Of a stretch of DNA of 50,907 nt, positions 4,829 to 38,330 are shown in pieces. Under the pieces are notes generated by a model, which searched no databases, was not told the DNA's origin, and saw only the letters and a list, made by a program, of their open reading frames with translations. The stretch lies in assembly GCA_964588235.1 (NCBI GenBank), contig CAZPOZ010000001.1:1-50907 (forward strand). Reading direction: 5' to 3'. Position 1 is the first letter of the stretch, and each line of letters starts with the position of its first letter. The DNA comes from an uncultured Planctomycetales bacterium. GTDB taxonomy: Bacteria; Planctomycetota; PLA2; JAEUHO01. Made by a program: the position numbers and the translations under genes.

Positions 4829-6862
4829 CTACTTCGCCACGGCCTGCCAGTCGCCCACGGGCAGGTAGGCCCCCGCCGGGGTGACCAGCAACAGCCGGGC
4901 CTCGAGCCCTTCGCGCGGGAGGGGCGGGCGTTCCACGCGGAGCTCCGTCGCGGCCCACGAGTCCGGAAGGGGGAGGCGCTTGCGGGAGGGGCTCTCCTTG
5001 AGCAGGTCCGTACGCGCGTAGCCGTCCGTAATGATCATCGCGCTCAAGTGGTCCGAGATGCCTGCGTCGGGGTCTCCTGGCTCGAGGGCGGCGCCCGCGG
5101 GGTGCGTGGCTTGGATGGCGCGGGCGCCGAGCGTGCCGTCGGCCCGCGACGTCAAGCGAAAGAGGACCTCCCATCGCGGGGCCAGCCCCGTGCCGGTGAT
5201 CAGGCCGCGCGCGACCGCGCGGTCCCGCACGCCGATCGGAGGGCGCTCGAGCGGAACCACGGTCCCGGAGGCCGGGTCGACCAAGACTGCGGGCCACTCC
5301 TGCAGTGCGCCGTGGTGACGATCCCCGTCTCGAACGAGGCGGACCCAGGCGTGGGAGCGGGCGTCGCGCCCGAAGTAGGCCGTGCTGCGGAACTCGAGGA
5401 CCGCGTCTACGGACGGCGGAAGGCTCACGCCGCCATCGAGGTTGACGATGGGCATGTCGCTCGGGAAGCGGAACTCCGCCCGGAGGCTCGGCAGGCGCGT
5501 CCAGGTCACGGGGCAGGCGTTAGGGCAGCCTGTCTGCAGCGCCTCCAGCCAAGCGGCCCAGGCGTCCAGTCGGGCTGCGTCGATGACCGCGGTGTAGACC
5601 GCGTGCAACTCCCCCGTGGGCCGGGCATCCGGCATCCAGACCGAGAGGCCGAGGTCGGGGGTGTGCGCGGGGGACCCCGAGCGGCTCGCGATCACCGCGG
5701 CTTGGACGGCGGTTTGGAGTCCCGTGGCCGCCTTGCGCAGGCCGTCGTCCGTTGCCGAAGACTCCAGCTCCCTCGCCATCCTGCCGAGGTCGTAGGCTTG
5801 GCAGCGGAACCCCTTCCCGGAGCAGCTCGCCCACCAATCGGCCAGGTAGCCGAGCCAGCTGCCCTCCGGGCAGTAGCGTTGGTCGCACAGGGGATCGCAG
5901 GTCGTCGTCGCGACGAGCCAGGTGGTGAGTGCCTGCCCCAGCCCGGCCACTGCATCGCGCACCGTGAGTACAGCGGTAGAGTCGAGCGCCACGAGCGTGT
6001 CGAGAATCTCGGGTTCCTGGGCGCCGCCGAGGTCCCCTGGGCAGTCCCTTCGGCGGCGGGCGTTGAAGCACTCTGCGACGATGTGCCGGGCCAGCTGCTT
6101 GGGCATCAAGGTCGAGGCTGTCTCCGCAACGTGCGTGAGCACGCGGCCGTGTCGGATCCGTTGGGAGAATAGGCGGTCAGCGCTGGCTACGACGTACGAA
6201 GGAACGCGGCTGGACCCCAGGTGCTCGCAGAGCGCCGCCGCCACTTCGATCGAAGCCATGTTGCAGACGTCGAGAACGAGCACGTCGATTGGGCGCGCCG
6301 TCTCGGACGGCGCGCCCGATGGCTGGATGCCGTTCGCCACCCCGTCCATCCGCAGCGTCGTCTCGTGGACGTTGCCCCCGCCGGCCGTGTAGCCACCCCA
6401 ACCAGCGGCGTGCCCCTTGAGGGTCAGCAGGCGCCTTGCGGCGGGGCCTGCCCGCAGCATCTCCTGCACGAACCGGCGGAGGGTGTCACCCGAGCCCATG
6501 TCGCAGGTGCCCCAGTCGTCCTCCTCCGTCGAAGGGCTCAGGCCTTCCGGTCCGAAGCGAAGCAGGCGTGCACCGGCCCAGTTCCCCGCAGAGCCCACCG
6601 GACGGACATCCAGCTCCGACCCGCTCTCGCCCTGTCCCTGCCCGCGGTCCAGCAGGACGAGCACGCGCACGGACTCCGGCAGAGCCGACCGCTGCGCAGC
6701 CAGAGCCACGTCCACGCACTCGCGCTCCAGGTCTCCCTCGCCTGCCAGGTAGTACCCCAGGACCCACTGGACCCCCGCAGCTGCCCCGGCAGGAGGTCCA
6801 CTCTGGAGTGCGGCGATCAGGAGCAGCGCCGCGCGAAGGCCCGTACGGCCAACTCGGGTCAT
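4829..6862 (-). CDS. Exported clostripain-like cysteine peptidase (MEROPS family C11, clan CD) with large C-terminal extension
   Basis: In-frame ATG at 6862 gives signal-peptide-like MTRVGRTGLRAALLLIAALQSGPPAGAAAG, with GGAGG 6 nt upstream. C11 layout is present: WVLGYYLAGEGDLE...VRVLVLLDR, His-Gly dyad LTLKGHAAGWGG, catalytic Cys LVLDVCNMASIE. The family call is from motif memory, not a search. Confidence 0.75.
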   Translation of the reverse strand: MTRVGRTGLRAALLLIAALQSGPPAGAAAGVQWVLGYYLAGEGDLERECVDVALAAQRSALPESVRVLVLLDRGQGQGESGSELDVRPVGSAGNWAGARLLRFGPEGLSPSTEEDDWGTCDMGSGDTLRRFVQEMLRAGPAARRLLTLKGHAAGWGGYTAGGGNVHETTLRMDGVANGIQPSGAPSETARPIDVLVLDVCNMASIEVAAALCEHLGSSRVPSYVVASADRLFSQRIRHGRVLTHVAETASTLMPKQLARHIVAECFNARRRRDCPGDLGGAQEPEILDTLVALDSTAVLTVRDAVAGLGQALTTWLVATTTCDPLCDQRYCPEGSWLGYLADWWASCSGKGFRCQAYDLGRMARELESSATDDGLRKAATGLQTAVQAAVIASRSGSPAHTPDLGLSVWMPDARPTGELHAVYTAVIDAARLDAWAAWLEALQTGCPNACPVTWTRLPSLRAEFRFPSDMPIVNLDGGVSLPPSVDAVLEFRSTAYFGRDARSHAWVRLVRDGDRHHGALQEWPAVLVDPASGTVVPLERPPIGVRDRAVARGLITGTGLAPRWEVLFRLTSRADGTLGARAIQATHPAGAALEPGDPDAGISDHLSAMIITDGYARTDLLKESPSRKRLPLPDSWAATELRVERPPLPREGLEARLLLVTPAGAYLPVGDWQAVAK

Positions 6863-6939
6863 GCAGGCCTCCTTCGATGCGCCCTGTCGCGGAGTCGGGC
6901 GCGCGCGAGCTCGCCGCCAGGGTGCTCCACCAGGGAAGC

Positions 6940-6964
6940 GGCCCGCCGGTGGAGCCGGCGGGCC
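6940..6964 (-). terminator. Perfect 10-bp GC hairpin between the orphan lipoprotein gene and the C11 gene
   Basis: GGCCCGCCGG-tggag-CCGGCGGGCC at 6940-6949 / 6955-6964, 14 nt downstream of the lipoprotein stop (6979). There is no U-tract, so it could be a terminator, an attenuator or an mRNA-stability element. Confidence 0.4.
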
Positions 6965-6978
6965 GCCCAGGCGCGGCG

Positions 6979-8010
6979 TCAGCGCACCTGGTTTTCCTCC
7001 CAGTACCCGTTGTCGGGCGAAGCGGCTCCTGCGGCCTTGCTCTTGTGACGCATCCACCAATCGGCACGATCGTCATTGGCGGTGGCGGTGCCAGCCTCGT
7101 GCACGAACTCCACCATCTTCAGACGGAAGTCACCGCTCCACTCCATGATGTACGACGCGGACCAATTGGACCCCGCCGTGATGGTCGTCTGGATCTCGAC
7201 CTTCGTGATGTTCCGGCTCCAGGGGTCGGTGGACGGCGGGGCGAAGTCCAACTCCTGACCCTGCGCCACACCCGTGCCGCCGAACGTGGAGTCGTCCCAC
7301 TGCGCGGACCCGGTCGGGTAAATCTTGGTGCCGTTGTCTCCGAACAGGCGGAAGCGGGCGTACACCGGCGCTCCGAAGTCGGCCTGACGGGCATTGCGCA
7401 GCCGCAGCCGCTCGAAGGTGATGTCGCCCTGGGGCTTGTCGTCGTCCTTCTGGCCCCGTTCGGCGGCCCCGGGCGTAGCCGGCGAGAGTGCGGGCGGCGA
7501 TTGGCCCGTGTCGTCGTTGTACCAATCGAAGACGCGATTCGCTGGCGATCCCTCGGAGCGATAGATGACTGCGTCCACCCCGTTGCTTCCCCCGTCCGCG
7601 TGTGCCACGATGAGCGCAGCGATGATGCTCTCATCGGTCACGCTGAACTCGTGCTTCTTCGAGCCTGCGGCACCCATCATGATGAAGACCGTCACGGAGC
7701 GTACGTAGGCCCCCTGCGGCACAGCAGCAAGATCAGGTGTCAGGCGCTCACCCTGGTTCAGCGGGCTGGAGTAGACGTACTGCTGCGGGAAGCTTCCTTG
7801 GCGCGTGTGAACCTGCCAAGCCACCTGAATGGGGGTGGCTCGCTGGTTGACCAGCCTCAGCCGCTCGAAGGGCACGTCGGCGCGGACTCGGCACTGGCGG
7901 CGCGGCGCGCCCCAGCTGTCCGACTTCGATCCGAACAGGGCGCAGGCGAGCAGGACCAGCGCCAGCAACGGAAGCCGCCAGCGCGGCACGGACGACGGAA
8001 CTCGACTCAT
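6979..8010 (-). CDS. Orphan lipoprotein made of two tandem ~150-aa repeats (function unknown)
   Basis: ATG at 8010 gives MSRVPSSVPRWRLPLLALVLLAC with an LLAC lipobox. Composition is protein-like with non-repetitive aromatics. Two repeats open with PFERLRLVNQRA and TFERLRLRNARQ, 151 codons apart. I recognise no known domain. Confidence 0.7.
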   Translation of the reverse strand: MSRVPSSVPRWRLPLLALVLLACALFGSKSDSWGAPRRQCRVRADVPFERLRLVNQRATPIQVAWQVHTRQGSFPQQYVYSSPLNQGERLTPDLAAVPQGAYVRSVTVFIMMGAAGSKKHEFSVTDESIIAALIVAHADGGSNGVDAVIYRSEGSPANRVFDWYNDDTGQSPPALSPATPGAAERGQKDDDKPQGDITFERLRLRNARQADFGAPVYARFRLFGDNGTKIYPTGSAQWDDSTFGGTGVAQGQELDFAPPSTDPWSRNITKVEIQTTITAGSNWSASYIMEWSGDFRLKMVEFVHEAGTATANDDRADWWMRHKSKAAGAASPDNGYWEENQVR

Positions 8011-8068
8011 GCGCTTCCTCCAACTCGCGGCCACTTGCCGCGGAACGTCCTTCGGGGGGGGGCGGGAA

Positions 8069-8098
8069 ACCCTAGCCCCACGCGACCGGTCGCGTCAA
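8069..8098 (-). promoter_or_regulatory. Candidate sigma-70-like promoter with an embedded perfect 14-bp palindrome, upstream of the orphan lipoprotein gene
   Basis: The minus strand reads TTGACG (8098..8093), an 18-nt spacer, then TAGGGT (8074..8069). The palindrome CGCGACC|GGTCGCG (8081-8094) fills the spacer. It lies about 60 nt upstream of the ATG at 8010. Confidence 0.3.
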
Positions 8099-8164
8099 GA
8101 GGGCTCGCCGCGCATGAGACGCCCGCATCGCGCCGCGCGAGTGTCGGGGCCGTCCCGCCCGGGT

Positions 8165-11100
8165 TCACGGCAACCCCCACAGCGACCAGCCCGCCCAGAA
8201 CACCGGGTCGGGTTTGACCCGGCGAACGGCCTCCTGGGCCTCGCGCAGCGCGCGCGCCGCGTCCGCTCCGAGATGCAGGCGCCGGTGGAACTCCGTCATC
8301 AGCGTGGCCGTGGCCTCGTCGTCCACGTCCCAGAGGCTCACGAGCACGCGGGATGCGCCCGCGAACATGAACGCGCGCACGAGACCGATCACGCCCTCTC
8401 CCCGGACGAGCTCGCCCCGCCCTGTGCGGCAGGCCGAGAGGACCACCAGCTCCGCGGGCACGCGCCGGCTCCAGACCTCGCGCACGCTGAGGTAGCCGTC
8501 CTCCTCGCCCCCGGGCATCAGGGCGATCGCCGTCCCCGAGGGCAGGGCGACGTCCACCAGCCCGTGGGCCACGATGTGCAGCACCCGCAGCATCCGGTCC
8601 GGCCCTACGGCCCCCAGCTCCGCCCAGAGCCGACCCTCCGTGGCCTCGGCGCCGCGAACCACCCGGCTGTCGGGAAGGCTCGCGAGCGCCGCGAGCTCTG
8701 CGCCCGCGAAGGCGAGGTTGTTCAGGCTCGGCCCCCCGGCGCGAAGCGCGAGGGCAGGCGGCGGCTCGGCCGCCGGCCTCCCGGTCGCGGCCGCGCGGTA
8801 GTCCGGGTCGCCGAAGCCCAGCACGCCCTGACCCTGGGGGCGCGACTCGGAGCGCAGGAACGCCTGCACCGACGCCGAGGCCACGAAGGCGACGTCCAGC
8901 GCCCGGCCCTCCTCGAGCAGCGCCCGGATCGGGAGGTAGGTCAACTCCGCATCCGGGCTGAAGAGCAGCCGCTCCGTCGCGCCCGTCAGCCCGAGCGGGT
9001 TCCACAAGTGCTCCCGCAGGTACGCGCGCGCCTGGGTCGCCGCCGGGCCCGACAACCGCGGCTGGGACTCGCTCGAGGCTCCCGAGAGCGCCTGCGCGTG
9101 CGTGCGCAGCGCCTGCACCTCGGCAGCCGTGCCCGCCAGCCTCGCGCGACGGGCGCCCTGGCCGTCCACGATCAGCGCCCAGGCCTCTTCGGGTAGCAGC
9201 GCCACCGAGACGAAGGCGTCGCTGGAGCGCAAGCCCAGCGCGTCTCGCAGCTGGGCGAGCAGCGGCCGGAGCGGGCGCAAGCGCTGCTCCTGCCGGGGGT
9301 CGCGGGCGGCTTGGTCCACCGCCGACCAGGCCGCGCGCTCGTCGTCGCAGCACCGTTCGTATCCCTGCCAGGCCTCGTTGAGGGCCCGCCCGTACGCCTG
9401 GAAGGCCGACTCGCCGGCCCGACGCGGAAGCGCGGCCGCCGCCTCGGGCTTCATGGCCTTCAGGGTCACGTACTGACGGTGGGCGCGCTCCTTGCCGGCC
9501 GACGCGCGGTCCAGCGCCGAGGTCAACGCGCGGGGCACCGCGAGCTCGTTGAGCCCGCTCCGTCCGCCGAACGAGTCCAGCAGCGCCATCGAGCGCGACT
9601 CCTCGAGGAACTCGTGGAGCGCCTCCAGCGCCAGCTCGCTCTCGTCGGCCGGCAGCCGGGCCGCTGCGGCGATGCCCACGTCCACCGAGGTGAGCAGCCC
9701 CTCACGCACGCGCGCTCGGAACGTGTCGGGCAGGCCGCTCGTCAGCTGCTCCAGGCGCTCGACGTTGTCGCGAGCGGCATCCAGGGCCGCGCGCACGTTG
9801 CCCTGCGCGAGCTCCAGGCGGGCCTGGGAGGTCCCGACCACGGCCGCGAGCAGGGGCAGCTTGAGATGGCGGGCCGTGGCGGCGGCGCGGGCCAGAGCCC
9901 GGGAAGCCTCCGCATGCTGGCCCAGGGCGGTGTGGAGGGCGCCCAGGGTGTCGAGGGTCGCGACGAGCGCCAGGTTCGGCGCGACCCCGGGCTTTGCGTA
10001 GGGCGCAACCGCCGCGGCGGCCATCGCCAGCCCCTGACGCCAGTGCTTGGCGCGGGCCTCGTCGCCGAGGCGACTGCGCTTGGCCGCGTCCGGCTCTCTC
10101 ACCGCCAGCGCGTGGGCCTCGGCATGGCCTCTCCGCAGCCGTAGCATGGCCAGCGCGTTCAGCGCCGGCGTGACGAAAGACCGCGCCTCCTGGCCTTGGG
10201 ACTCGAAGGCGCGGAGCGCGGCTTGGAGGGCGGCTTCCGCTTCGTCCCACTCGCCGAGGGCGTCCAGCGCCTGGCCTCGAGCCCCCAGCGTGACGGCCCG
10301 GTCCAGCGGGTCTTCCGACTTCTGCGCGAGCTCCAGCGCCTGCTTGAGCTCCTCCAAAGCGGCCCGAGGCTCGCCCAGGAGCAGCAGCAGGTTGCCCTTG
10401 CGACGCGCGAACTCCGCCTCCTGGATCGGCCGTACGCGCGCGTCCTCGCCCGGAGCCCCCGGCGCCCGCAGCCTGCTGAGCGCGGCCTCCGCGTCCGCTC
10501 GCGCCCGCAGCGCCGCGAGGTAGTCGCCGCGCCGCGTCAGGATCGCGAGCAGGTCGCTCAGGCACTGGAACGTGTCGGCCGGGCGGTGGAGCCCTTCATA
10601 GGCCCGCACGGCCTCGCGCAGCCAGCGCTCAGCGCTCGGATCGTCGCCCTGCTGCGAGTGGAAGAGGCCGAGATAACGCTTCACCGTGGCCAGCGACGTC
10701 GGCGCACCATCCTCTGCCGCCAATGGGTAGGCACGCTGGAGGCAGCCGATCCCACGTGAGTACTCACCTGCGTAGTACCACGCCTCCGCGGCGGCGACCC
10801 AGTCTCGCTGGCCTCCGTCGTGCCAGCCCACTTCCATCGCGCTGCGCGCCGCCGCCTCGTGCACGGAGGCCAGCACCCCGGAGTCCGCCTCGTCGCTCAA
10901 CAGCGCGGCGCGCTCGCGCTCCAGGCGGATCCGGAGCACGCAGTCACGGGGCGCCGCGGACAACGCCGGCTCGAGCACCGCCCGCGCGGCGGCGAGCGTG
11001 CTGCCCGCCCGCAGCTCCTGGGCCGTGCGCAGCGCGCCGCGCAGATCGGAGAGGGCGTCCACCGCCACGGGCCGGGCCAAGTAGCTCTCCAGGCGCTCGC

Positions 11101-11419
11101 GCTCCCGACCCTTCGCCGTCGCCGCGACGGCGCGAGCTGCCGTGACCGACCCGAGGGCCAGGCATTCGTCCACGACGATCCAGAGGTCGCTGCCGTCGCC
11201 GGCTGCGAGGAGCGCCGCTGCCTCGAGAGCAGCCCCCTCGGGGGGCGCCGCGGTCAGAGCCTTGACGAACTCGCTTGCGCGCGCTTCCGGGGAGCGCTGC
11301 TCCTGGTCGGCCGGACTCCCGGCCGACGCCTCCGGCGGCTCCTCGCCCACGGCCGCGCGAAGGCCGCCCAGGGCTGCCAGCAGCACGCCGACCAGCAGGG
11401 CCCGCCGAACCACGCCCAT
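8165..11419 (-). CDS. Exported TPR-repeat protein with C-terminal CHAT (caspase-fold, clan CD) peptidase domain
   Basis: 1084-aa ORF. N-terminal signal-like MGVVRRALLVGVLLAALGGLRAAVG, then about 700 aa of TPR-like helical repeats. The C-terminal CHAT region has His LRVLHIVAHG and Cys LVVLSACRTG (Cys codon at 8429-8431), then GLVRAFMFAGASRVLVSLWDVDD. Confidence 0.85.
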   Translation of the reverse strand: MGVVRRALLVGVLLAALGGLRAAVGEEPPEASAGSPADQEQRSPEARASEFVKALTAAPPEGAALEAAALLAAGDGSDLWIVVDECLALGSVTAARAVAATAKGRERERLESYLARPVAVDALSDLRGALRTAQELRAGSTLAAARAVLEPALSAAPRDCVLRIRLERERAALLSDEADSGVLASVHEAAARSAMEVGWHDGGQRDWVAAAEAWYYAGEYSRGIGCLQRAYPLAAEDGAPTSLATVKRYLGLFHSQQGDDPSAERWLREAVRAYEGLHRPADTFQCLSDLLAILTRRGDYLAALRARADAEAALSRLRAPGAPGEDARVRPIQEAEFARRKGNLLLLLGEPRAALEELKQALELAQKSEDPLDRAVTLGARGQALDALGEWDEAEAALQAALRAFESQGQEARSFVTPALNALAMLRLRRGHAEAHALAVREPDAAKRSRLGDEARAKHWRQGLAMAAAAVAPYAKPGVAPNLALVATLDTLGALHTALGQHAEASRALARAAATARHLKLPLLAAVVGTSQARLELAQGNVRAALDAARDNVERLEQLTSGLPDTFRARVREGLLTSVDVGIAAAARLPADESELALEALHEFLEESRSMALLDSFGGRSGLNELAVPRALTSALDRASAGKERAHRQYVTLKAMKPEAAAALPRRAGESAFQAYGRALNEAWQGYERCCDDERAAWSAVDQAARDPRQEQRLRPLRPLLAQLRDALGLRSSDAFVSVALLPEEAWALIVDGQGARRARLAGTAAEVQALRTHAQALSGASSESQPRLSGPAATQARAYLREHLWNPLGLTGATERLLFSPDAELTYLPIRALLEEGRALDVAFVASASVQAFLRSESRPQGQGVLGFGDPDYRAAATGRPAAEPPPALALRAGGPSLNNLAFAGAELAALASLPDSRVVRGAEATEGRLWAELGAVGPDRMLRVLHIVAHGLVDVALPSGTAIALMPGGEEDGYLSVREVWSRRVPAELVVLSACRTGRGELVRGEGVIGLVRAFMFAGASRVLVSLWDVDDEATATLMTEFHRRLHLGADAARALREAQEAVRRVKPDPVFWAGWSLWGLP

Positions 11420-11476
11420 GGGGCGATCTCCGACCGTCTAGGTGTTCCTACGGTGTGAACCAGTGGAGCGGGCAGC

Positions 11477-13612
11477 CTAACGTGGCCGATCCGCGCTCGC
11501 CGGGGGGCCCGAGATGCGGTCGAGCCACGCGGGCAGCGTGCCCGTGCCCTCCCCCCCCTCGAGGTCCTCGGCCGCCCAGGTGCGGCTCAGCTCGAGGCGG
11601 TCGAGGCAGTGACCGACCAGGGAGCCCGCCAGGGCGGGGCAGCCACGCTCGGCGGCCGCCGCACCCAGCTCGGCCAGCGCCGCCGTAGCCAGGTCGGCCT
11701 CCAACAGGGCCAGCGCCCGCAGCAGCCGCCACTCCGCGCCCCGCTCGCCGGGCAGGAGGGCCTCCAAGCGCAGCAGCGGTTCCGCTGCAGCCTCCGCCGC
11801 GACCACCGTGAGGGAGGCCTGCTCGGCCGGGGCCCCCTCGTCCGCGCCGCCGGCTGCGGCCTCCGCCGATGGCACGAAGGCCACCGTGAGCCCCGTGCCC
11901 GGCGTCAGCGAGGCCAGGGTCGAGGCCCCGAGCTCGAAGCGGCCGAAGGTCTGCTGCTCCGTCGGGTTCAGCGCCGCCTGCGCCAGCACCTCGGCGCCGC
12001 GGCGCAGCTCGAGCCGGCCCCCCGGCCGGTAGGCCTCCGGGTCCACCTCGACCCACCACCGGCCGAGGTCCTGCGGGCGGACCGTCCCCCGCGGGGCCAG
12101 CACGCGCACGCTGGGGCTGCCCCTGGGCGGTGCCCGGACCCCCGAGGCCTCGCGCAGCGCGATCCTCGACGTGTCCAGGCGCGCATCGCGCGCGAGCCCG
12201 AGGAGCCAGGCCAGCTGCTGACGGGGCGTCGCTCCGGGATCGGGCCGCAGCGGCGGCATCAGGACCTCGCGCTCGGCCGCCGGGCTCAGCTCGACGTCCT
12301 TCACCAGGACCTCGAGCCCCTCGCGCCGCAGCTCCACCCGGTGCCGGCCTGCGCCCAGACGCACCGCGACGGGCGCTGTGCCGTGGTTCTGCCCGTCGAT
12401 CCACACCTGCGCGTCCGCGGGCAGCGTCCACGGGATCGTCAACGTCGCCGGCCGGGTCGTCCACCAGGCGCCGACCCCGACCACGACCACCCCCGCCGCC
12501 GCCAGCGGGACCCAGCGCCGGCGCGCCCAGCGGGCCGCGCGCACCAGACGCGGGACCGGGCGCCCCAGCACCTCGCGGCCCTCCGCGAAGGCGCGCAGAT
12601 CGTCGGCCATCGCCGCCGCCGTCGCGTAGCGGTCGGCCGGGTCCTTCTCCAACGCCTTGAGCGCGATGCGCGCCAACGGCGCGGGCACGTCGTGGCCGTG
12701 GACGCCCGGCGGCACGGGCCGCTGCGCCACGATCAGGCTCACCAGCTGCGGCCAGGCGTCGGTCAGGAACGGCACCCGGCCCGCCAGGCACTCGTACAGC
12801 ACCGCCCCGAGCCCGTACACGTCGGAGCGCGCGTCGATCGCGTCCTGCCGGCCCAGCACCTGCTCGGGCGACATGTAGGCGGGCGTGCCCACCATGGCCC
12901 CCGTCCGCGTCAGGGTCGCCGCTTCGGGCGTGCGCGCCAGGCCGAAGTCGGCCAGCACCAGGCGCCCGTCCTCGCGCATCAGGAGGTTGGCCGGCTTCAC
13001 GTCCCGATGCACCGTGCCGGCTGCGTGCAGCGCCTGCAACGCGTCGGCCACCCCCGCCAGCGCCCGCGCCAGCTCCCCCCGCGGCGGCAGGCGCTTCTCG
13101 GAAATCAGGCGCGAGAGCGGCGCGCCCTTGACCAGGTCCATGGCGTAGCAGGCCCGGCCCTCGAACACGCCGTGCCCGTGCACCGCCACGATGCAGTCGT
13201 GCCGCACCCGCGCGCAGGCGCTCGCCTCGCGCTGGAACCGCGCCAGCGCCTGCGCGTCGTCCTCCAAGGACAGCCGCAATACCTTGAGGGCCACCGTGCG
13301 CCCCAGCGCCCGCTCGACGGCCTCGTAGACCACCCCCGCGCCGCCTCGGCCCACCTCGCGCACCAGGGTGTAGGGACCGAAGGGCCGCGGCAGCTCCAGC
13401 GGCCCGGGAAGCTCGTCGCCCAGCGCCTCGTCCAGCATCGCCTCCGCCGTGAGCACCTCGTCGAGCTCCGCGTAGCGCGGCCCCAGCCGCGCCCGGAACT
13501 CCGCCAGGTCCACCGGTTCCCCGGCGGCCTGCCGGCGGTGGATCTCCTCCAGCGCGTCGGCCAGGTCCGAAGGATCGGGCTCGTCCGGCGGGGGGGCGGC
13601 GATGAGGTTCAT
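11477..13612 (-). CDS. Ser/Thr protein kinase, single TM, extracytoplasmic PEGA-like domain plus uncharacterised C-terminal region
   Basis: 711-aa ORF. Hanks kinase motifs are present: GRGGAGVVYEA, VALKVL, HRDVKPANLL, DFGLAR, GTPAYMSPEQ. TM segment WVPLAAAGVVVVGVGAWW is followed by LTIPWTLPADAQVWIDGQNHGTAPVAVRLGAGRHRVEL (PEGA-like). Confidence 0.9.
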   Translation of the reverse strand: MNLIAAPPPDEPDPSDLADALEEIHRRQAAGEPVDLAEFRARLGPRYAELDEVLTAEAMLDEALGDELPGPLELPRPFGPYTLVREVGRGGAGVVYEAVERALGRTVALKVLRLSLEDDAQALARFQREASACARVRHDCIVAVHGHGVFEGRACYAMDLVKGAPLSRLISEKRLPPRGELARALAGVADALQALHAAGTVHRDVKPANLLMREDGRLVLADFGLARTPEAATLTRTGAMVGTPAYMSPEQVLGRQDAIDARSDVYGLGAVLYECLAGRVPFLTDAWPQLVSLIVAQRPVPPGVHGHDVPAPLARIALKALEKDPADRYATAAAMADDLRAFAEGREVLGRPVPRLVRAARWARRRWVPLAAAGVVVVGVGAWWTTRPATLTIPWTLPADAQVWIDGQNHGTAPVAVRLGAGRHRVELRREGLEVLVKDVELSPAAEREVLMPPLRPDPGATPRQQLAWLLGLARDARLDTSRIALREASGVRAPPRGSPSVRVLAPRGTVRPQDLGRWWVEVDPEAYRPGGRLELRRGAEVLAQAALNPTEQQTFGRFELGASTLASLTPGTGLTVAFVPSAEAAAGGADEGAPAEQASLTVVAAEAAAEPLLRLEALLPGERGAEWRLLRALALLEADLATAALAELGAAAAERGCPALAGSLVGHCLDRLELSRTWAAEDLEGGEGTGTLPAWLDRISGPPASADRPR

Positions 13613-13641
13613 GGGGCTGCCGACGAAGGGGGAATCCGGGC

Positions 13642-14220
13642 TCAGGCGTTACGCGGGGGCACGGGCGGGGTCGAGACCCCGAGCAGCCTGCGCAACGCCC
13701 GGAGCGCGCGGAAGCAGCGCACGCGCACGGCTCCCGGGGACACGCCCCACAGCTCGGCCAGCTCCGCCGTCGAGCGCTCCTCGAGCTTCAGCAAGGCGAT
13801 CGCCTCCCGGTCGGCGTCCGAGAGCAGCGCCATCGCGGCCATCACCTGGGCCAGCCGCTCGTTGCGCTCCGCCCGCGCCGACGGCGAGGTCTGGCTGAAG
13901 GGCGCCGGCACCGGCAGCTGCCGCTTGAGCGCTCCGTCGTGGTCGGCCAGCTCGGCGATGCAGGAGCGGCCGATGCGGAACACCCAGGCCAGGAACGAGG
14001 CCAGCGCGTCGCCTCGGAACTCCTGGCTCCGGCGGGAGAGCTCGAGCAGCACCTGCTGCGCCACGTCCTCGGGCTCGTAGCGGGCCCGCAGCGCCGGGCC
14101 CAGGCGGGCCGAGGCCCAGAGCACGAGGCGGTTGCGCAGGCGTTCGAGCAGGACGCCCAGCGCCCGCTCGTCACCGGAGCGCCAGCGCGCGAACTCGTCC
14201 GCCGTGCTGCCGGGGGCCAT
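13642..14220 (-). CDS. ECF-type RNA polymerase sigma factor (sigma-70 regions 2 and 4)
   Basis: In-frame ATG at 14220 (MAPGSTADEFARWRSGDERALGVLLERL...). Region 2 reads EPEDVAQQVLLEL...FLAWVFRIGRSCI. Region 4 HTH reads LSDADREAIALLKLEERSTAELAELWGVSPGAVRVRCFRALRALR. The rest of track ORF 13642..15423 is junk. It ends 29 nt upstream of the kinase start. Confidence 0.88.
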   Translation of the reverse strand: MAPGSTADEFARWRSGDERALGVLLERLRNRLVLWASARLGPALRARYEPEDVAQQVLLELSRRSQEFRGDALASFLAWVFRIGRSCIAELADHDGALKRQLPVPAPFSQTSPSARAERNERLAQVMAAMALLSDADREAIALLKLEERSTAELAELWGVSPGAVRVRCFRALRALRRLLGVSTPPVPPRNA

Positions 14221-20554: not shown

Positions 20555-21934
20555 ATGGGCAGGAGGCTGATCGCGCTGGCGGTGGTCGTGACGGTGGGGC
20601 CCGGGTGTGCCCGGGGGAGGGCCGGACCCGGCGTCCGCGACTCGGTCAGGAGCGACCTGGAACGGCGTGCCCAGGTGGTCCCGGCGCTCGTCCTCGCCCC
20701 GGGGGACGGGGTGGCCGGGCCCCTCGCGGTGGAAGACGCCGTCCGGCTGGCCCTGCTCCACAACCCGGAGGTGCGTGCGGCGTACGAGCGCCTGGGCATC
20801 GCCTGCGCCGACCTCGTGCAGGCAGGGTTGCTGCGCAACCCGATCTTCTCGGTCGAGGCCAAGGCGTTCGGCGCGGGAGCGGAGGTCGAGCTCGGGCTGG
20901 CCCAGTCCTTCGTCGAGCTGTTCTTCGTCCCGCTGCGCCGGCGCGTCGCGCGGTCCGAGCTCTTCGCCGAGCAGTGCGCCGTCACGCGCGAGCTCGTGCG
21001 CCTGGTGTTCGACGTGCGACGGTCCTTCGCGCGCGTGCGGGCGGCCGACGCCGTCGTTGCCCTCCACGAGTCGTCCCTCGAGCGCGCCGAGGCCTCGCGG
21101 GAGCTGATGCGCAGGCTCCACGAGGCGGGCAACGCGCGGGACGTCGCGCGCAGCCTGGAGGAGGCCGAGGCGGGACGGGCGCGGCTCGACGTGGACGCCG
21201 CGCGCCTGCACGCCGCCGAGACGCGGGAGTCGCTGGTCGTGCTCCTCGGCGTGCAGGCGGAGCCCAGGGGCCTCGTCCTCTCGGCGGCGGACCCCGCCCC
21301 GAGGGCGGGTCCGGGTGAACCCGCCGTCGAAGACCTGGCGGTGGCGGCGAGCCTGGACCTGCTCGAGGGTCGGGCACGCCTCCAGTCGGCCGCGATCCGG
21401 GCCGGCCTCGCGCGCCGCGAGGGGCTGCTGCCGGAGCTGGACCTGGGGGTCGTCGGGAAGCGGGAGCCGGACGGCGCCTGGGGTCTCGGGCCCTCCCTCG
21501 CCGTGGCCCTGCCGCTGTTCGACCACGGCCAGGCGCGACGGTTGGCCGCGCACGCCGGCCTGCGACGCCTGGCGGCGCAGGTCGAGACGACGGGGATCGC
21601 CGTCCGCTCCGCTGCGCGCAGGCTGAGCCGACGTGTGGCCGCGCTCGCCGAGCGCGAGCGCTACCTCCGGGAGGAACACCTCCCTCTGCGCGAACGACTC
21701 GTCCGGGAGGTCCTGCAGCTCTACAACGCCATGCAGATCGGGGCCTTCGACGTCCTGCGGGCCAAGCGGCTGCAGATCGACGCGCAGCGCGAGCACGTGG
21801 AGACGCAACGCGAGCTGCTGCTCGCGAGGTTGGACCTGGACGAGCTCCTCGCCGGGAGCCTGAATGCGCAGCGGATCGAGGAGCTCGACCTGCCCGACCC
21901 GGCGGACGGCCCCGAGCCACCCGAGGGACACTGA
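20555..21934 (+). CDS. Outer-membrane efflux protein (TolC/CusC-like OMF), lipoprotein
   Basis: 459-aa ORF. Lipobox-like VTVGPGC. OEP-type helical repeats (AVRLALLHNPEVRAAYERLGIACADLVQAGLLRNP, and a second half with LEGRARLQSAAIRAGLARRE). The stop lies 1 nt before the multicopper oxidase start. Confidence 0.8.
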   Translation: MGRRLIALAVVVTVGPGCARGRAGPGVRDSVRSDLERRAQVVPALVLAPGDGVAGPLAVEDAVRLALLHNPEVRAAYERLGIACADLVQAGLLRNPIFSVEAKAFGAGAEVELGLAQSFVELFFVPLRRRVARSELFAEQCAVTRELVRLVFDVRRSFARVRAADAVVALHESSLERAEASRELMRRLHEAGNARDVARSLEEAEAGRARLDVDAARLHAAETRESLVVLLGVQAEPRGLVLSAADPAPRAGPGEPAVEDLAVAASLDLLEGRARLQSAAIRAGLARREGLLPELDLGVVGKREPDGAWGLGPSLAVALPLFDHGQARRLAAHAGLRRLAAQVETTGIAVRSAARRLSRRVAALAERERYLREEHLPLRERLVREVLQLYNAMQIGAFDVLRAKRLQIDAQREHVETQRELLLARLDLDELLAGSLNAQRIEELDLPDPADGPEPPEGH

Positions 21935-21935
21935 G

Positions 21936-23291
21936 ATGCGAACCCGCCAAGCGACCGTCGTCCTGCTCCTGTCCACGTCGGCCCTGCTGGGCCTGGTCGT
22001 TCCCGACCTGCCGGCGGACGAGCCGGCCGTGGACGCGGCCCCGAGCTACCGGCCGGTCGTCACACCCAACGGCGCGACGTTGCCCTACCGCCTGGTGGAC
22101 GGGGTGAAGATCTTCCACCTCGTCGCGGAGGAGGTGCTCCACGAGTTCGCACCCGGCCTCGCCGCGCGGCTGTGGGGCTACAACGGGCGCGTGCACGGGC
22201 CCACGATCGAGGCCGTGGAGGGCGATACCGTCCGCATCTACGTCACGAACAGGCTGCCCGCGCCGACGACCGTGCACTGGCACGGGCTTCACGTGCCGAG
22301 CGGGATGGACGGCGTGGGGGGGCTCTCGCAACGCCCGATCGAGCCGGGGGAGACCTTCCGCTACGAGTTCACGCTGCGCCAGCACGGCACGTTCATGTAC
22401 CACTCCCACCACGACGAGATGGTTCAGATGGCGCTCGGGCTCATGGGCATGCTCGTGATCCACCCGCGGAAGCCTCGGGGGCCGCTGCCCGACCGCGACT
22501 TCGTGCTGCTGCTGAGCGAGTGGAGCGTCGCGCCGGGCCTCCGACGCCCCGACGTCAACGAGATGACGGACTTCAACGTGCTCACCTTCAATGCCCGGGC
22601 GTTCCCGGGCACGGAGCCGCTCGTGGCCCGGACCGGCGACCGGATCCGGATCCGCATCGGGAACCTGAGCGGGATGGACCATCATCCCATCCACGTGCAC
22701 GGGACGTCGTTCAAGGTGATCGAGACCGACGGGGGGCCCATCCCCGAGGCTGGTCAATGGCCCGAGACGACCGTGCTCGTGCCCACGGGGAGCACGCGCA
22801 CGATCGAGTTCGTGGCGACCAACCCGGGCGACTGGGCGGTGCACTGCCACATGACCCACCACACGATGAACCAGATGGGCCATGGTCTGCCCAACCTCGT
22901 GGGGCTCGATCCGTCCGAGTTCGACGAGGCGGTGGCCACGCTCGTGGACGCATCCCTCCCTCCCGTGCCTCCCGCGCCGCCCGAGGACCCCATGGCCGGG
23001 CTGATCCCGCCCAACAGCATCCCCATGCTGGGCGGCGACGGCCCGTTCGGCACGATCGCCATGGGCGGCATGTTCACGGTCCTGAAGGTGCGGGAGGGGC
23101 TGGCCTCCCTTGCCGATCCGGGCTGGTACGCAGGACCCCCCGACGAGGTCGCGGGTCCGGCCGACGAGGCGCAGCTGCGTCGCGACGGCGTGGATCCGAA
23201 CGCGGGCGAGCCCCTCCCCGACGGTCGCGCCCCCGCGCCGCGCGCGCCCGCTCCACGGGGTCCGGGGCACGCGGGTCACGGTGGGAGGTAG
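21936..23291 (+). CDS. Multicopper oxidase
   Basis: ATG at 21936, in frame with track ORF 21864..23291. All four copper-ligand motifs are present: TTVHWHGL, FMYHSHH, HPIHVHG, HCHMTHHTMNQM. Confidence 0.92.
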   Translation: MRTRQATVVLLLSTSALLGLVVPDLPADEPAVDAAPSYRPVVTPNGATLPYRLVDGVKIFHLVAEEVLHEFAPGLAARLWGYNGRVHGPTIEAVEGDTVRIYVTNRLPAPTTVHWHGLHVPSGMDGVGGLSQRPIEPGETFRYEFTLRQHGTFMYHSHHDEMVQMALGLMGMLVIHPRKPRGPLPDRDFVLLLSEWSVAPGLRRPDVNEMTDFNVLTFNARAFPGTEPLVARTGDRIRIRIGNLSGMDHHPIHVHGTSFKVIETDGGPIPEAGQWPETTVLVPTGSTRTIEFVATNPGDWAVHCHMTHHTMNQMGHGLPNLVGLDPSEFDEAVATLVDASLPPVPPAPPEDPMAGLIPPNSIPMLGGDGPFGTIAMGGMFTVLKVREGLASLADPGWYAGPPDEVAGPADEAQLRRDGVDPNAGEPLPDGRAPAPRAPAPRGPGHAGHGGR

Positions 23292-23295
23292 CCGC

Positions 23296-23868
23296 ATGAC
23301 GCGGGCGAGCAGCGTCCCCGCCGACCTCGGCACCGTCCTGGCCGAGCGGGAGCGCATGCTGGCGTTCCTGCGCAGGCACGGCGCCGACCGGGTGCGGGCG
23401 GAGGACGTGCTGCAGACGGCCTACCTGAAGGCCCTGGGCAGCCTGGACACGCTGCGGCAGGGGCGCAGCGTGGTGGCCTGGTTCTTCCGCATCCTCAGGC
23501 GCGCGTGGATCGACGACCGTCGCGGGGCGGCGCGTGGCGCCCGCGCCCTGGCGGAAGCGGGCCGGCGTGCAGCCGACGCCCTCGCCCGGGACGAGGCGGC
23601 CCTGCGCAGCGCCGTCTGCCGTTGCGTGGACCGGCTCCTCGGGGGGTTGGAGCCGGGGCAGCGCGAGCTGCTCCGGAGGGTGGACCTCGAGGGCGCGTCG
23701 CCCTCCGAGGTGGCCGGGGCCCTGGGCATCACCCCGGGCAACGCGGCCGTTCGTCTCCATCGCGCCCGCAAGGCGCTGCGCAGCCGGCTCGAGGCGGTCT
23801 GCGGCAGCTGCACGCGGCACAAGTGCCTGGACTGCCACTGCGCCGAGGGCCGGGCCAGCGCCGTGTAA
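23296..23868 (+). CDS. ECF sigma factor with C-terminal Cys-rich extension (CorE-like, copper-responsive type)
   Basis: ATG at 23296 with GGGAGG at 23283-23288, 4 nt after the oxidase stop. Region 2 reads [14 protein letters not shown]...[15 protein letters not shown]. Region 4 reads [45 protein letters not shown]. The tail is [21 protein letters not shown], and there is a CRC between regions 2 and 4. Confidence 0.85.
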
Positions 23869-23921
23869 GGCCTGCGGCCCGTCGGGCGTCAGCAGGGGTG
23901 ACGCTGAACCAGGAGGCCCGC

Positions 23922-26180
23922 ATGCCGCACGCCCACGCCCACGCCCCCCACAACGACCCCGAGCACGGTTGCCACGGCCCGCACGCGGCGCCGCCCCCGG
24001 CTCCCCCCGGCCCCGGCGCCGGCGCGGCGGAGGCAAGCCGCGGGGAGCCTCCCGCTGCGGGCTTGGCGCAGGCGGTCCGCTGGACCTGCCCCATGCACCC
24101 CGAGGTGGTGGAGGACCGGCCGGGAGACTGCCCGAAGTGCGGGATGGCGCTCGAGCCCGCCCATCCGACCGCGACGGGGGCGGGGGCGGAGGCCGACGAG
24201 TCGCGCCGGCTTCGGCGCCGCTTCGCCGTGTCCGCCGCGCTGTCGCTGCCGCTCCTCGTGCTGGCGATGGGCGGCCACCTGCTCGGCGCTCCGGGCCTGC
24301 TGCGGGGCACGCAGCGCCTGTGGATCGAGCTCCTCCTGGCCACGCCGGTCGTGCTCTGGGGGGGAGCCCCGTTCCTCAGGCGCGGCTGGTACTCGATCGT
24401 GCACCGCAGCCTGAACATGTTCACGTTGATCGGGCTGGGCGTGCTCGTCGCCTACCTCTACAGCGTCGTCGTCACGATCAGCCCCACCCTCGTGCCCGAG
24501 GCCTACCGGGACGGCCACGGCGTGCCGGCCGTCTACTTCGAAGCGGCGGCCGTGATCGTCGTGCTGGTGCAGCTGGGCCAGGTGCTCGAGGGCATCGCGC
24601 GCCGCAAGACGGGCGACGCGCTCCGCTCGCTCCTGAGCCTCGCCCCGCAGACCGCCCGCAGGATCGACGCGGAGGGACGTGAGTCCGACGTGCCGCTCGC
24701 CGAGGTCGCCGTGGGCGAGCTGCTCCGGGTGCGGCCGGGGGAGCGCCTGCCGGTGGATGGCCGTGTGGAGCAGGGCCGCAGCGCGGTGGACGAGTCGATG
24801 CTCACGGGGGAGCCGTTGCCGAAGTCCAAGGACGCGGGGGACGGCGTGGCCGCCGGCACGCTCAACGGGTGGGGCAGCCTGGTGATCCGCGCCACCGCGG
24901 TGGGAGCGCGTACCGTGCTCGCGCGCATCGCTGCGCGCGTGGCCGAGGCCCAACGGAGCAAGGCGCCCACGCAGCGGCTGGCCGACCGGATCGCGGCCTG
25001 GTTCGTGCCCGCAGTCCTCGTCGTGGCGCTGCTCGCCTACGTCGCCTGGCTGCTCTGGGGCCCGGAGCCGCGCGGCGCGCACGCGCTCGCGGCCGCCCTC
25101 TCGGTGCTGATCATCGCCTGTCCCTGCGCGCTCGGGCTGGCCACGCCGATGTCGATCATCGTCGCCATGGGGCGCGGCGCTGGCTCCGGGGTGCTGTTCC
25201 GGGACGCGGCCGCGCTCGAACGCCTGCGGGACGTGGACACCGTCGTCGTGGACAAGACCGGCACCCTGACGGTGGGCAAGCCCACGCTCGCGGTGGTCTG
25301 GTCCGTCGATGGCGGCAACGACGAGCTGCTGCGGCTCGTCACGGCCGTGGAGCGGGCAAGCGAGCACCCGTTGGCGCACGCGATCGTATCGGCGGCGGAG
25401 GAGCGCAGCCTCGCTCGGAGCCGCGTCACGGAGTTCCTGTCCGTCTCCGGGCTGGGCGTGGAGGGGCTCGTGGACGGGCGACGCGTCCACGTCGGGAGCG
25501 AGGCGTACCTCGCCCGCGTCGGCGTCGACGTGGATCCGTTGCGTGCGCGGGCCGACGGGCTGCGCGAGACCGGCGCCAGCGTGGTGCTGGCCGCCCTGGA
25601 TGGTCGTGCCGCTGGCCTCCTTGCCGTGCGCGACCCGCTCAAGCCCGGGACGCCGCAGGCCCTCTCCGAGCTGACGCGTCTGGGGCTCCGCGTGGTGATG
25701 CTGACGGGGGACGGCGAGCGCACGGCTCGCGCCGTCGGGCGAGAGCTGGGGCTGTCGGAGGTGCACGCCGGCGTGACGCCCGAAGGCAAGGCCGACCTCG
25801 TGCGGCGGCTCCAGGGGGAGGGGCGCGTGGTCGCCATGGCCGGCGACGGGATCAACGACGCGCCCGCGCTGGCCCAGGCGGACGTGGGTATCGCGATGGG
25901 TACGGGCACCGACGTGGCCCTGGAGGCGGGAGCGGTCACGCTCGTCGCCGGCGACCTGCGCGGGATCGCCCGCGCCGTGACCCTGAGCCGAGCGACCGTG
26001 GCGAACCTGCGGCAGAATCTCGTGCTCGCGTTCGGCTACAACATGCTGGCGGTGCCGCTCGCGGCCGGCGCTCTTCATCCCACGCTCGGCTGGGTGCTGA
26101 GCCCGATGGTCGCCGCGGTGGCCATGACGCTCAGCTCGCTCTCCGTGATCGCCAACGCGTTGAGGCTGCGCTCCGCCTGA
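23922..26180 (+). CDS. Copper-translocating P1B-type ATPase with His-rich N-terminus and CPxH...CPxCGM metal-binding module
   Basis: ATG at 23922 with AGGAGG at 23911-23916. N-terminus [21 protein letters not shown], then [26 protein letters not shown]. Signature motifs are the TM CPC ([13 protein letters not shown]), DKTGTLT and GDGINDAP. Confidence 0.93.
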
Positions 26181-30250: not shown

Positions 30251-30482
30251 CGCCCGGACCCTCCCAGGGCGGCCCCGCGGGGTGGCCCTGAGCGTACACG
30301 GCGCCCGCCCCCGCCGTCCGCCCGCACCCCCTGAAAGGAAGCCGGCTCCGCGCCCTACTCTCCTGGTGGGTGCCGGATCCGGCGCCGCGGACCTCCCACC
30401 CCGACGCGCGTCCAGCGCCTTCGACCGCCCCGCCCGGATCGCCCCCCGCTCTACCCGCCCCCCCCGCTCCCGGAGAACCCCG

Positions 30483-32621: not shown

Positions 32622-32652
32622 TCGTCCGGCACCCGGCAACGGCCGCTTCAGC

Positions 32653-33708: not shown

Positions 33709-33715
33709 CGCAGCG

Positions 33716-36397: not shown

Positions 36398-36454
36398 CGG
36401 TGGGGTCCTGGATGGGGCCGCACCCTACGCCCCACCGGAGACGTGCGGGCGAGG

Positions 36455-37882: not shown

Positions 37883-37904
37883 GCGCTCTCCGGCGGCCGG
37901 GCCG

Positions 37905-38330
37905 CTACAGGTCGAGCACGATCGTCGCACGCCACGGGCGGCCCCCCTCCGCCGGGATCACCCGCAGGTCGTGGTAGGTCACCGCCTTCACCACCCGGTC
38001 GGGGGGCTCGACGCCCGGGTCGGTGGCGCGGGCGAGCAGCACGCCCCGCGCCCCGCGCTCGTCGGCGAAGGCCACCCGGGCGCCCCGCGCGACCAGCCCG
38101 CGGTCCTCGTAGGCCTGCGCCGCGGCCGTGAGCCAGGCGACCAGCACGTCCTCCCGGTCGGCGCCCGTGACCTCCACGGGCAGCTCGGTGGCCGCCGGAC
38201 GGCCGTCCTCGGCCAGGATCACGTCGCCGAGCGCCGCCGTGGCGGCGGCGAGCAGGCCCGGCCAGGAGGGCCCCTCGACCTCGAAGCCGAAGTCGGCCGT
38301 GTGGTCGATGGGGCGGTAGGGCGGGCGCAT
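37905..38330 (-). CDS. Archease (RtcB activator)
   Basis: In-frame ATG at 38330 (MRPPYRPIDHTADFGFEVEG) with GGGAGAG upstream. N-terminal HTAD motif and C-terminal VKAVTYHDLRV are typical of archease. The stop lies 22 nt before the rtcB start. Confidence 0.88.
   Translation of the reverse strand: MRPPYRPIDHTADFGFEVEGPSWPGLLAAATAALGDVILAEDGRPAATELPVEVTGADREDVLVAWLTAAAQAYEDRGLVARGARVAFADERGARGVLLARATDPGVEPPDRVVKAVTYHDLRVIPAEGGRPWRATIVLDL

Follow-up and report, generated by a model that had tools for sequence, protein, structure and literature searches.

Can proteases of peptidase clan CD that lie outside the cytoplasm help to control a sigma factor inside it? The question is raised by five consecutive genes at positions 4829-14220 of a 50,907-nt stretch of contig CAZPOZ010000001.1 from an uncultured Planctomycetales bacterium (hereafter the window, meaning the whole stretch; its G+C content is ~76%). 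These genes encode a sigma factor of the extracytoplasmic function (ECF) type, a Ser/Thr kinase, a TPR-CHAT protease-like protein, a lipoprotein and a C11-like peptidase. Our answer is tentative and held with slightly less than even confidence: by analogy with described systems, the locus would be a kinase-coupled, extracytoplasmic variant of an envelope signalling module built from a CHAT protease and a sigma factor. The proteins of the window were scanned with Pfam, NCBIfam and PADLOC, and positions are those of the whole window. The five genes, with the basis of each call in brackets, are as follows.

13642-14220, minus strand: ECF sigma factor, 192 aa (Pfam, NCBIfam)
11477-13612, minus strand: Hanks-type Ser/Thr kinase, 711 aa, beginning 29 nt after the ECF stop codon (Pfam, hydropathy)
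8165-11419, minus strand: TPR-CHAT protease-like protein, 1084 aa, with a 57-nt gap to the kinase gene (Pfam)
6979-8010, minus strand: lipoprotein, 343 aa, with a 154-nt gap to the CHAT gene (lipobox LLAC)
4829-6862, minus strand: C11-like peptidase, 677 aa, with a 116-nt gap to the lipoprotein gene (HMMER, alignment, Foldseek)

An initial annotation, made from the letters alone, had described this co-directional minus-strand string. Its coordinates and gaps (29, 57, 154 and 116 nt) proved exact, and all five of its gene assignments stood up to Pfam, exhaustive HMMER searches, alignment of the catalytic dyads and Foldseek. The spacing from the ECF gene through the kinase gene to the CHAT gene (29 and 57 nt) is operon-like. 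The window proteins that were looked up were all singletons at 90% identity.

The TPR-CHAT (PF12770) protein has a CHAT domain well above threshold (Pfam CHAT, 1.2e-49, 169.7 bits against a cut-off of 24, residues 801-1080), preceded by TPR repeats (TPR_12, 49 bits). His948, His952 and Cys997, which lie in the motifs HIVAHG and LSACRTG, are invariant in an alignment of 16 homologues, with His952/Cys997 as the predicted dyad. Neither a zf-HC2 nor another cytoplasmic anti-sigma domain was found in the protein by Pfam, and only 6 residues precede its hydrophobic segment. Searching PDB sequences with the protein itself (phmmer) gave no matches; these came from profiles only. TPR proteins dominate the PDB matches of the full-length CHAT profile, and the best match of the CHAT profile is 8rot/8rw5, a 991-aa chain labelled 'CHAT domain-containing protein' (E 8e-4). 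The window dyad aligns with H862 and C907 of 8rot_B. Judged by its length and by the dyad positions in the aligned region, this chain appears to be DdvA of Myxococcus xanthus.

The C11 assignment draws on several lines of evidence. Against a gathering cut-off of 25.8 bits, the Pfam Peptidase_C11 match falls short at 19.7 (E 6.7e-4, residues 120-263 only), so Pfam alone gives no support for the call. A word-indexed search of 5.8 billion proteins retrieved only the protein itself, and phmmer against PDB sequences returned no matches, only profiles doing so. Exhaustive phmmer against 1.84 billion representatives, by contrast, found 503 relatives at E<=1e-3 (best 9.5e-17), spanning residues 25-445, and each of the ten relatives put through Pfam is a strong C11 match (1e-26 to 1e-46). 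A C11 family profile that included the query matched clostripain 9cip in the PDB at 1.7e-56. A single-sequence AlphaFold model of the protein had a pLDDT of 34. The N-domain of an alignment-based AlphaFold2 (AF2) model, whose alignment was made of C11 proteins, was mostly above 85, and the top 10 PDB matches of that model by Foldseek were all C11 (9cip at 2.6e-16, target-normalised TM 0.58-0.69). Across a 32-sequence C11 alignment, His151 and Asp198 do not vary and Cys200 is nearly invariant (KGHAAGWGG, LDVCNMAS); the predicted catalytic His and Cys thus occupy the family columns, with the Asp two residues before the Cys. The initial annotation had called the dyads of both peptidases intact, and proper alignment displaced the catalytic residues of neither (His151/Cys200 here, the HIVAHG and LSACRTG residues in CHAT). 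The protein is a family outlier, with HA for HG after the catalytic His, DVC for DAC and ASAD for ASEE. Its peptidase domain covers residues ~31-445 (nt 5528-6772), and the beta-rich C-terminal region of ~230 residues (~450-677) showed no match to anything. On the strength of its sequence, the 677-aa protein is a divergent clostripain-family C11 peptidase, with export predicted.

Export signals and topology were read from the sequence letters (hydropathy and motifs) without a dedicated predictor. The CHAT protein begins with MGVVRR, a 14-residue hydrophobic run and then an acidic stretch, an N-terminus that predicts export or membrane anchoring; 65 of 93 TPR-CHAT homologues (~70%) have a signal-like N-terminus. 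The C11 peptidase begins with MTRVGRTGLRAALLLIAALQSGPPAGAAAG, immediately ahead of the conserved WxxxxY where the peptidase domain begins, and its signal-like leader comprises residues 1-30. The lipobox of the lipoprotein (LLAC) is kept in its sole homologue, and the kinase has one Arg-flanked hydrophobic span (~365-385) ahead of its PEGA domain. From these features, the kinase ectodomain would share one compartment with CHAT, C11 and the lipoprotein. The N-termini, lipobox and hydrophobic span therefore uphold, as a prediction, the extracytoplasmic placing of these parts that the initial annotation had proposed.

That annotation knew of no described system of this composition and took the known roles of CHAT to be cytoplasmic. 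Both statements are outdated: two myxobacterial systems have near-identical gene content, and in DdvA the TPR-CHAT domain is periplasmic (PMC11506125). This protein is an anti-sigma factor that spans the membrane, and its periplasmic domain of ~900 residues is TPR-CHAT (PMC11506125, PMC6061681). Its authors propose that a signal induces CHAT autoproteolysis, which leads to regulated intramembrane proteolysis and frees the ECF sigma factor DdvS; in the ddvS-ddvA operon, a gene of unknown function and then a C25 peptidase gene come next (PMC11506125). The window locus likewise encodes an ECF sigma with a TPR-CHAT protein, here predicted to be extracytoplasmic, that keeps its His-Cys dyad. The two genes are co-directional with only the kinase gene between them, and the ddv order of unknown gene then clan-CD peptidase is echoed by lipoprotein then C11. 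The differences are also clear. DdvA has an N-terminal cytoplasmic zinc-binding anti-sigma domain (~70 aa) and one transmembrane helix that are absent from the window CHAT, whereas the window has a Ser/Thr kinase gene between sigma and CHAT. As second peptidase, the ddv operon encodes a C25 and the window locus a C11. DdvS/DdvA controls an adjacent CBASS/CRISPR island, but none was found near the window locus by Pfam or PADLOC. Sequence similarity between DdvA and the window CHAT is marginal (E 8e-4, by profile only).

The DdvA CHAT domain was caught in a resting state, and cleavage by it has so far only been proposed (PMC11506125). The resting state lends something to the idea that no proteolysis takes place at the window locus, with CHAT as a non-catalytic TPR scaffold or the C11 as an inactive pseudo-protease. 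So do the divergent motifs of the C11 (HA, DVC, ASAD) and its score under the Pfam cut-off. However, invariant columns are occupied by His and Cys in both dyads and by the C11 Asp two residues before the Cys, and we regard an absence of proteolysis as very improbable.

The other myxobacterial system is a type III-B CRISPR-associated cluster of Haliangium ochraceum with genes for SAVED-CHAT and PCaspase as well as for a sigma factor, an inhibitor and a Ser/Thr kinase. A cascade has been demonstrated for it, in which PCaspase is activated through cleavage by SAVED-CHAT and in turn cuts the sigma factor and the inhibitor (bioRxiv 10.1101/2023.06.23.546230). The five functional classes are the same as those of the window, including CHAT, a second clan-CD protease, a sigma and a kinase. 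The inhibitor is a small protein of unknown family, and by cluster composition its counterpart in the window would be the lipoprotein. The Haliangium system is cytoplasmic and triggered by cA3 through SAVED, whereas the window CHAT has TPR and export signals and no SAVED domain by Pfam; PCaspase is a C14 peptidase, and the second protease of the window is C11. Pfam and PADLOC found no CRISPR or CBASS genes anywhere in the window. A further parallel is the type III-E craspase. In it, Cas7-11 with the TPR-CHAT protein Csx29 cleaves Csx30, which is bound to an ECF-type sigma factor (PMC10028731), so that a TPR-CHAT protease likewise controls a sigma-factor-associated protein by cleavage. It differs in being cytoplasmic and RNA-guided and in lacking both a kinase and a second protease.

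On the cytoplasmic side, the ECF sigma factor is recognised by Pfam Sigma70_r4_2 (2.5e-10) plus Sigma70_r2 and by NCBIfam sigma70-ECF (4.9e-18); its best subfamily is the Planctomycete-type TIGR02984, under that family's cut-off, and its best PDB matches are ECF sigmas. The kinase has an N-terminal extension of ~80 aa before the kinase domain (Pfam Pkinase, 5.3e-43, residues 81-336), then PEGA (9.3e-8, residues 396-444) and a further ~270 aa of ectodomain that matched no family. No anti-sigma domain was found in the cluster by Pfam. Ser/Thr kinases directly activate ECF sigmas in the pairs PknT/EcfP and PknS/EcfK (PMC8999054, PMC13147305), of which EcfK/PknS governs resistance to amoeba predation (PMC13147305). 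These ECF43 pairs likewise place an ECF sigma beside a single-pass Hanks kinase with an extracytoplasmic domain and without an anti-sigma gene, and at the window locus too the ECF gene adjoins a Hanks-type Ser/Thr kinase gene and the cluster encodes no anti-sigma factor. A second phosphosite region of EcfK, T104-S110 in the linker between sigma2 and sigma4, resembles the cluster FSQTSPS in the corresponding linker of the window ECF (residues ~95-120, Ser/Thr cluster PFSQTSPS). Genes with CHAT domains have been noted in the genomic context of the ECF54 group.

To what extent does CHAT keep such company in other genomes? The closest full-length homologues of the window CHAT are 29-35% identical. 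Five of their neighbourhoods were inspected. Two have no more of relevance than a second CHAT gene and a kinase gene some distance away, and a third shows nothing relevant. In L167 (8001-12938), the gene after CHAT encodes a protein of 306 aa that matches Sigma70_r4_2 weakly, and the next one an unknown protein of 304 aa; in L168, FecR/FGE-sulfatase genes flank CHAT on both sides. TPR-CHAT genes often have tandem or nearby paralogues on the same contig, as in L002 (3959-10623), L048, L043, L060, L075 and L080.

For a broader census, species-representative genomes were searched with an alignment of the CHAT C-terminal region, and 80 loci were picked by CHAT similarity alone (17 Planctomycetota, 25 cyanobacteria, 32 Acidobacteriota and 6 others). 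The Planctomycetota loci are closest to the window CHAT, at 49-57% identity in the C-terminal region. With a C11 hidden Markov model, a C11 gene was found directly upstream of TPR-CHAT on the same strand at 19 of the 80 loci (20 pairs), 18 of them in Acidobacteriota; a search with the divergent window protein alone nearly missed these pairs. The 19 loci are listed here, followed by the layout of one of them.

C11-CHAT loci: L018, L021, L025, L026, L030, L031, L032, L040, L041, L045, L046, L048 (two copies), L051, L054, L056, L066, L072, L079, L083
L026, 5502-7361: C11
L026, 7379-10567: CHAT
L026, 10643-11203: sigma factor
L026, 11228-12094: membrane protein

Unbiased clustering of neighbours brought out two further conserved genes just downstream of CHAT, on either strand. 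The first encodes a divergent ECF-like sigma of ~185 aa and lies 0-950 nt from CHAT in 22 of the 80 loci; its best PDB match is SigL, and hhalign aligns it to the window ECF with 93% probability (E 3e-7). The product of the second is a single-pass membrane protein of ~260 aa, whose N-terminal domain is cytoplasmic and whose ectodomain is small and beta-rich; it is probably an anti-sigma factor. This gene stands beside the sigma gene, downstream of CHAT, in 16 of the 19 C11-CHAT loci, and at six loci (L020, L027, L034, L053, L064 and L068) the sigma/putative anti-sigma pair follows CHAT without a C11 gene. In the resulting acidobacterial module (mostly Pyrinomonadaceae and Blastocatellia), CHAT has a signal-like N-terminus, while the C11s leave no room for a signal peptide and keep the predicted catalytic His and Cys, often with HSC rather than DxC. 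Like the window locus, the module combines C11, TPR-CHAT and an ECF-type sigma with both dyads intact, in its own case within ~7 kb; it has a putative anti-sigma where the window has the kinase, and it has no lipoprotein. Literature searches yielded no description of such a C11/TPR-CHAT/sigma/putative anti-sigma module, and no paper was found that names both CHAT domains and clostripain/C11 in a bacterial context. CHAT-sigma or CHAT-kinase adjacency also occurs in L167, in L008 (in the order ECF, WD40-kinase, phosphatase, CHAT) and in L070 (TPR-kinase, CHAT). A functional link of CHAT with another clan-CD protease and an ECF sigma is thus supported by the 19/80 C11-CHAT pairs, the 22/80 CHAT-sigma loci and the two published systems.

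Conservation of the neighbourhood had been suggested as a check in the initial annotation, and the outcome was divided: CHAT, C11 and sigma do recur together elsewhere, but the exact five-gene arrangement was found only in this organism and a near-identical strain. This last result and a series of others weigh against our reading of the locus as one module. A C11 gene is present in 0/17 Planctomycetota CHAT loci (and in 0/25 cyanobacterial ones), and only 2/17 of the former have an upstream kinase, both with another architecture. Seen from the C11 side, 80 metagenomic loci encoding the closest relatives of the window C11 contain no CHAT gene, and a kinase gene is nearby in only three of them. 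The acidobacterial module has the opposite order to the window, C11 then CHAT with sigma and putative anti-sigma downstream, and its C11 is of another subfamily and signal-less, unlike the window C11; common descent of the pairing is therefore unlikely. Given that no CHAT gene occurs in the 80 loci of C11 relatives, the CHAT-C11 adjacency of the window was not inherited from the acidobacterial pair, and we interpret it as independent convergence or coincidence.

The sigma factor and the promoters add to these objections. In ECF43 sigmas, the acidic DxxD of region 2.2 has been lost and a phospho-acceptor Thr stands in its place, with the consensus QTTA (PMC13147305). The window ECF retains the acidic motif of region 2.2 (EPEDVAQQ), with no QTTA-type replacement, and so keeps the EPED that the phosphorylation-dependent ECF43 sigmas lost. 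It is therefore not ECF43-like at the defining site, and may belong to another kinase-associated ECF group. No ECF-type promoter was recognisable by eye upstream of any gene of the cluster, and Pfam and PADLOC gave no hint of an ECF regulon among the other genes of the window.

Spacer sequence and base composition raise the further objection that the lipoprotein and C11 genes may stand apart. G+C content at third codon positions (GC3) steps down along the cluster, from 0.95-0.96 in the ECF and kinase genes to 0.91 in CHAT, 0.86 in C11 and 0.83 in the lipoprotein gene; across the kinase, ECF and methyl-accepting chemotaxis protein genes it is 0.95-0.98. Scans for consensus (strict sigma-70) promoters and for terminators found nothing between the five genes, and the first of the two spacer features below went unreported by the strict scan.

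8069-8098, minus strand: promoter-like element 5' of the lipoprotein gene, consisting of TTGACG (8098-8093), an 18-nt spacer and TAGGGT (8074-8069)
6936-6966, minus strand: in the lipoprotein-C11 spacer, a G+C hairpin of 13 bp with perfect pairing and no U tract

Both hexamers of the promoter-like element are kept in the sister-strain contigs L003 and L004, whereas the rest of the 154-nt spacer between CHAT and lipoprotein genes is mostly diverged or indel between strains, apart from a block near the ribosome-binding site that is also kept. Conservation of the element in a mostly diverged spacer suggests that the lipoprotein and C11 genes have a promoter of the housekeeping type. Strong Shine-Dalgarno sequences precede both genes (AAGGAGG, 6 nt before the ATG, in the case of C11). 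The promoter-like element and the lower GC3 of these two genes suggest separate transcription and possibly separate acquisition, and they strengthen a caveat of the initial annotation, whose lower GC for the pair is real (0.83 and 0.86 against 0.95-0.98). A 50-nt spacer segment that holds the hairpin (~6914-6963) is missing from L004, and folding energies of the hairpin and the spacers were no better than those of shuffled sequence.

It is quite possible, then, that two unrelated units merely adjoin: a kinase-ECF operon, with or without TPR-CHAT, and an independently transcribed, horizontally acquired C11-lipoprotein cassette for nutrition or surface remodelling. The lipoprotein would in that case be the cognate inhibitor, chaperone or anchor of a secreted clostripain-like protease; cysteine-protease/inhibitor gene pairs occur in other bacteria. 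Such a division would account for the conserved -35/-10-like element and strong Shine-Dalgarno sequence before the lipoprotein gene, for the GC3 of the cassette (0.83-0.86 against 0.95-0.98 in surrounding genes), and for the counts of 0/80, 0/17 and 0/25 given above. It also suits the ten scanned relatives, all strong Pfam C11 proteins, and the characterised C11 enzymes matched in the PDB, whose entries describe them as secreted, so that an exported C11 in the window needs no special explanation. Yet C11 genes adjoining TPR-CHAT recur in 19 independent loci with sigma and putative anti-sigma, and in both published systems CHAT is found together with another clan-CD protease and a sigma. The GC3 of CHAT is itself reduced (0.91), so composition gives no clean split of CHAT from the cassette.

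The lipoprotein has no Pfam, NCBIfam, PADLOC or PDB-sequence match, and its single homologue in the search of 5.8 billion proteins, at 75% identity, comes from a sister strain. It is apparently a two-domain protein, with the motif FERLRL opening each domain; internal duplication is weakly indicated by one shared 15-residue motif only. Residues 31-195 (nt 7426-7920), the N-domain, are hypervariable when near-identical strains are compared (with L003 and L004), as shown by the following nonsynonymous (dN) and synonymous (dS) divergences.

Lipoprotein N-domain (31-195): dS 0.68, dN 0.38, dN/dS 0.55
Lipoprotein C-domain: dS 0.19, dN 0.024, dN/dS 0.13
Flanking CHAT gene: dS 0.066, dN 0.011, dN/dS 0.16

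At the protein level the C-domain is ~95% identical between strains. Variable stretches of the N-domain alternate with short conserved blocks, a pattern that suggests a beta-sandwich with variable loops. The synonymous sites of the N-domain are also ~ten-fold elevated, which argues that an old divergent allele was swapped in, rather than recent point-mutation selection alone, and the pattern fits balanced polymorphism or recombination. A diversity-generating retroelement was considered as the source of the hypervariability and rejected, as there is no template-like repeat in the window and the synonymous sites too are ~ten-fold diverged. On contigs of the same organism from other sequencing runs, CHAT is 98-99.5% identical and the first 61 residues of C11 are identical; an identical ECF with the same neighbours was found in 3 further sequencing runs.

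Another reading is a defence switch in the periplasm that senses phages or predators as DdvS/DdvA would, with TPR-CHAT detecting an invader protein, the ECF sigma inducing distant defence genes, and the lipoprotein serving as an arms-race decoy or receptor. In line with this, the N-domain shows ~ten-fold excess divergence and a dN/dS of 0.55 against 0.13-0.16, the best PDB match of the CHAT profile is the 991-aa chain identified as DdvA, gene order parallels the ddv operon, and resistance to amoeba predation is under EcfK/PknS control. The surroundings speak differently, however. The locus adjoins neither CBASS nor CRISPR genes nor any others of known defence function, its neighbours being chemotaxis proteins, an esterase and a beta-lactamase-fold protein; PADLOC returned zero matches for CHAT, C11, lipoprotein and ECF, and for the kinase only generic kinase-domain ones; and the window CHAT lacks the zinc anti-sigma domain by which DdvA is defined. 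We consider a defence role unlikely.

The reading that we prefer, a kinase-coupled and extracytoplasmic CHAT-sigma module, would work as follows. Parts that are fused in DdvA would here be split into separate genes, with C11 and the lipoprotein as a second protease and its partner. The exported TPR-CHAT protein, probably co-transcribed with the ECF and kinase genes, would be a periplasmic sensor-protease. By analogy with DdvA and the acidobacterial CHAT/anti-sigma modules, it would cleave an extracytoplasmic target after its TPR region binds a protein signal, candidate targets being the kinase ectodomain, the lipoprotein or a C11 zymogen. The cytoplasmic output would consist of the single-pass Hanks kinase and an ECF sigma without an anti-sigma, with the kinase presumably activating the sigma by phosphorylation. 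The lipoprotein and the exported C11 would form a second, separately promoted unit, in which C11 may act as a second clan-CD protease, either executioner or activator, and the lipoprotein as a possible substrate, anchor or inhibitor. Co-transcription, the cleavage events and phosphorylation of the sigma by the kinase are steps that we infer. A bolder version, which we find doubtful, would have an extracytoplasmic caspase-like cascade. TPR-CHAT as initiator and C11 as executioner would process the kinase ectodomain or the polymorphic lipoprotein and thereby switch the ECF sigma, and the locus would be one of a broad class of TPR-CHAT/second clan-CD peptidase/ECF systems together with the acidobacterial module and the ddv operon.

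Besides the chemotaxis proteins, esterase and beta-lactamase-fold protein already named, the window holds the following features.

20555-26180: copper-resistance-like cluster encoding a multicopper oxidase, an efflux protein of the outer membrane and a P-type ATPase for heavy metals that has an HMBD domain
26993-30703: another large Ser/Thr kinase, of 1236 aa and ending in TPR repeats, an architecture shared with the CHAT-adjacent kinases of L070 and L079
31723-32575: 49-nt repeat in four copies, encoding a DxDxDG-like motif, within an open reading frame (ORF; 30731-32639) without a Pfam match above threshold
32674-37930, minus strand: HNH endonuclease, SNF2-family helicase (ZorD/DpdE-like by PADLOC, ~1e-54) and RtcB RNA ligase in a row
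41087-41648: tandem direct repeat of 256 nt, at 78% identity and 306-nt spacing, within an ORF of 899 aa (40584-43283) without matches in Pfam or PADLOC

Defence or repair is a possible role of the HNH/SNF2/RtcB cluster, which may have nothing to do with the CHAT locus.

That CHAT proteases act as switches is a recent finding in craspase and SAVED-CHAT/PCaspase, and the same has been proposed for DdvA. At the window locus the parts are separable: different genes encode the sensor-protease, the membrane transducer (here a kinase, not an anti-sigma), the other protease and a protein that may be substrate or inhibitor. Their encoding as four separate genes would make the cleavage logic directly testable. 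The acidobacterial module, present in ~20 genomes and apparently undescribed, may matter more than the window locus itself, as it suggests that ECF signalling gated by clan-CD proteases is far wider than the two myxobacterial examples.

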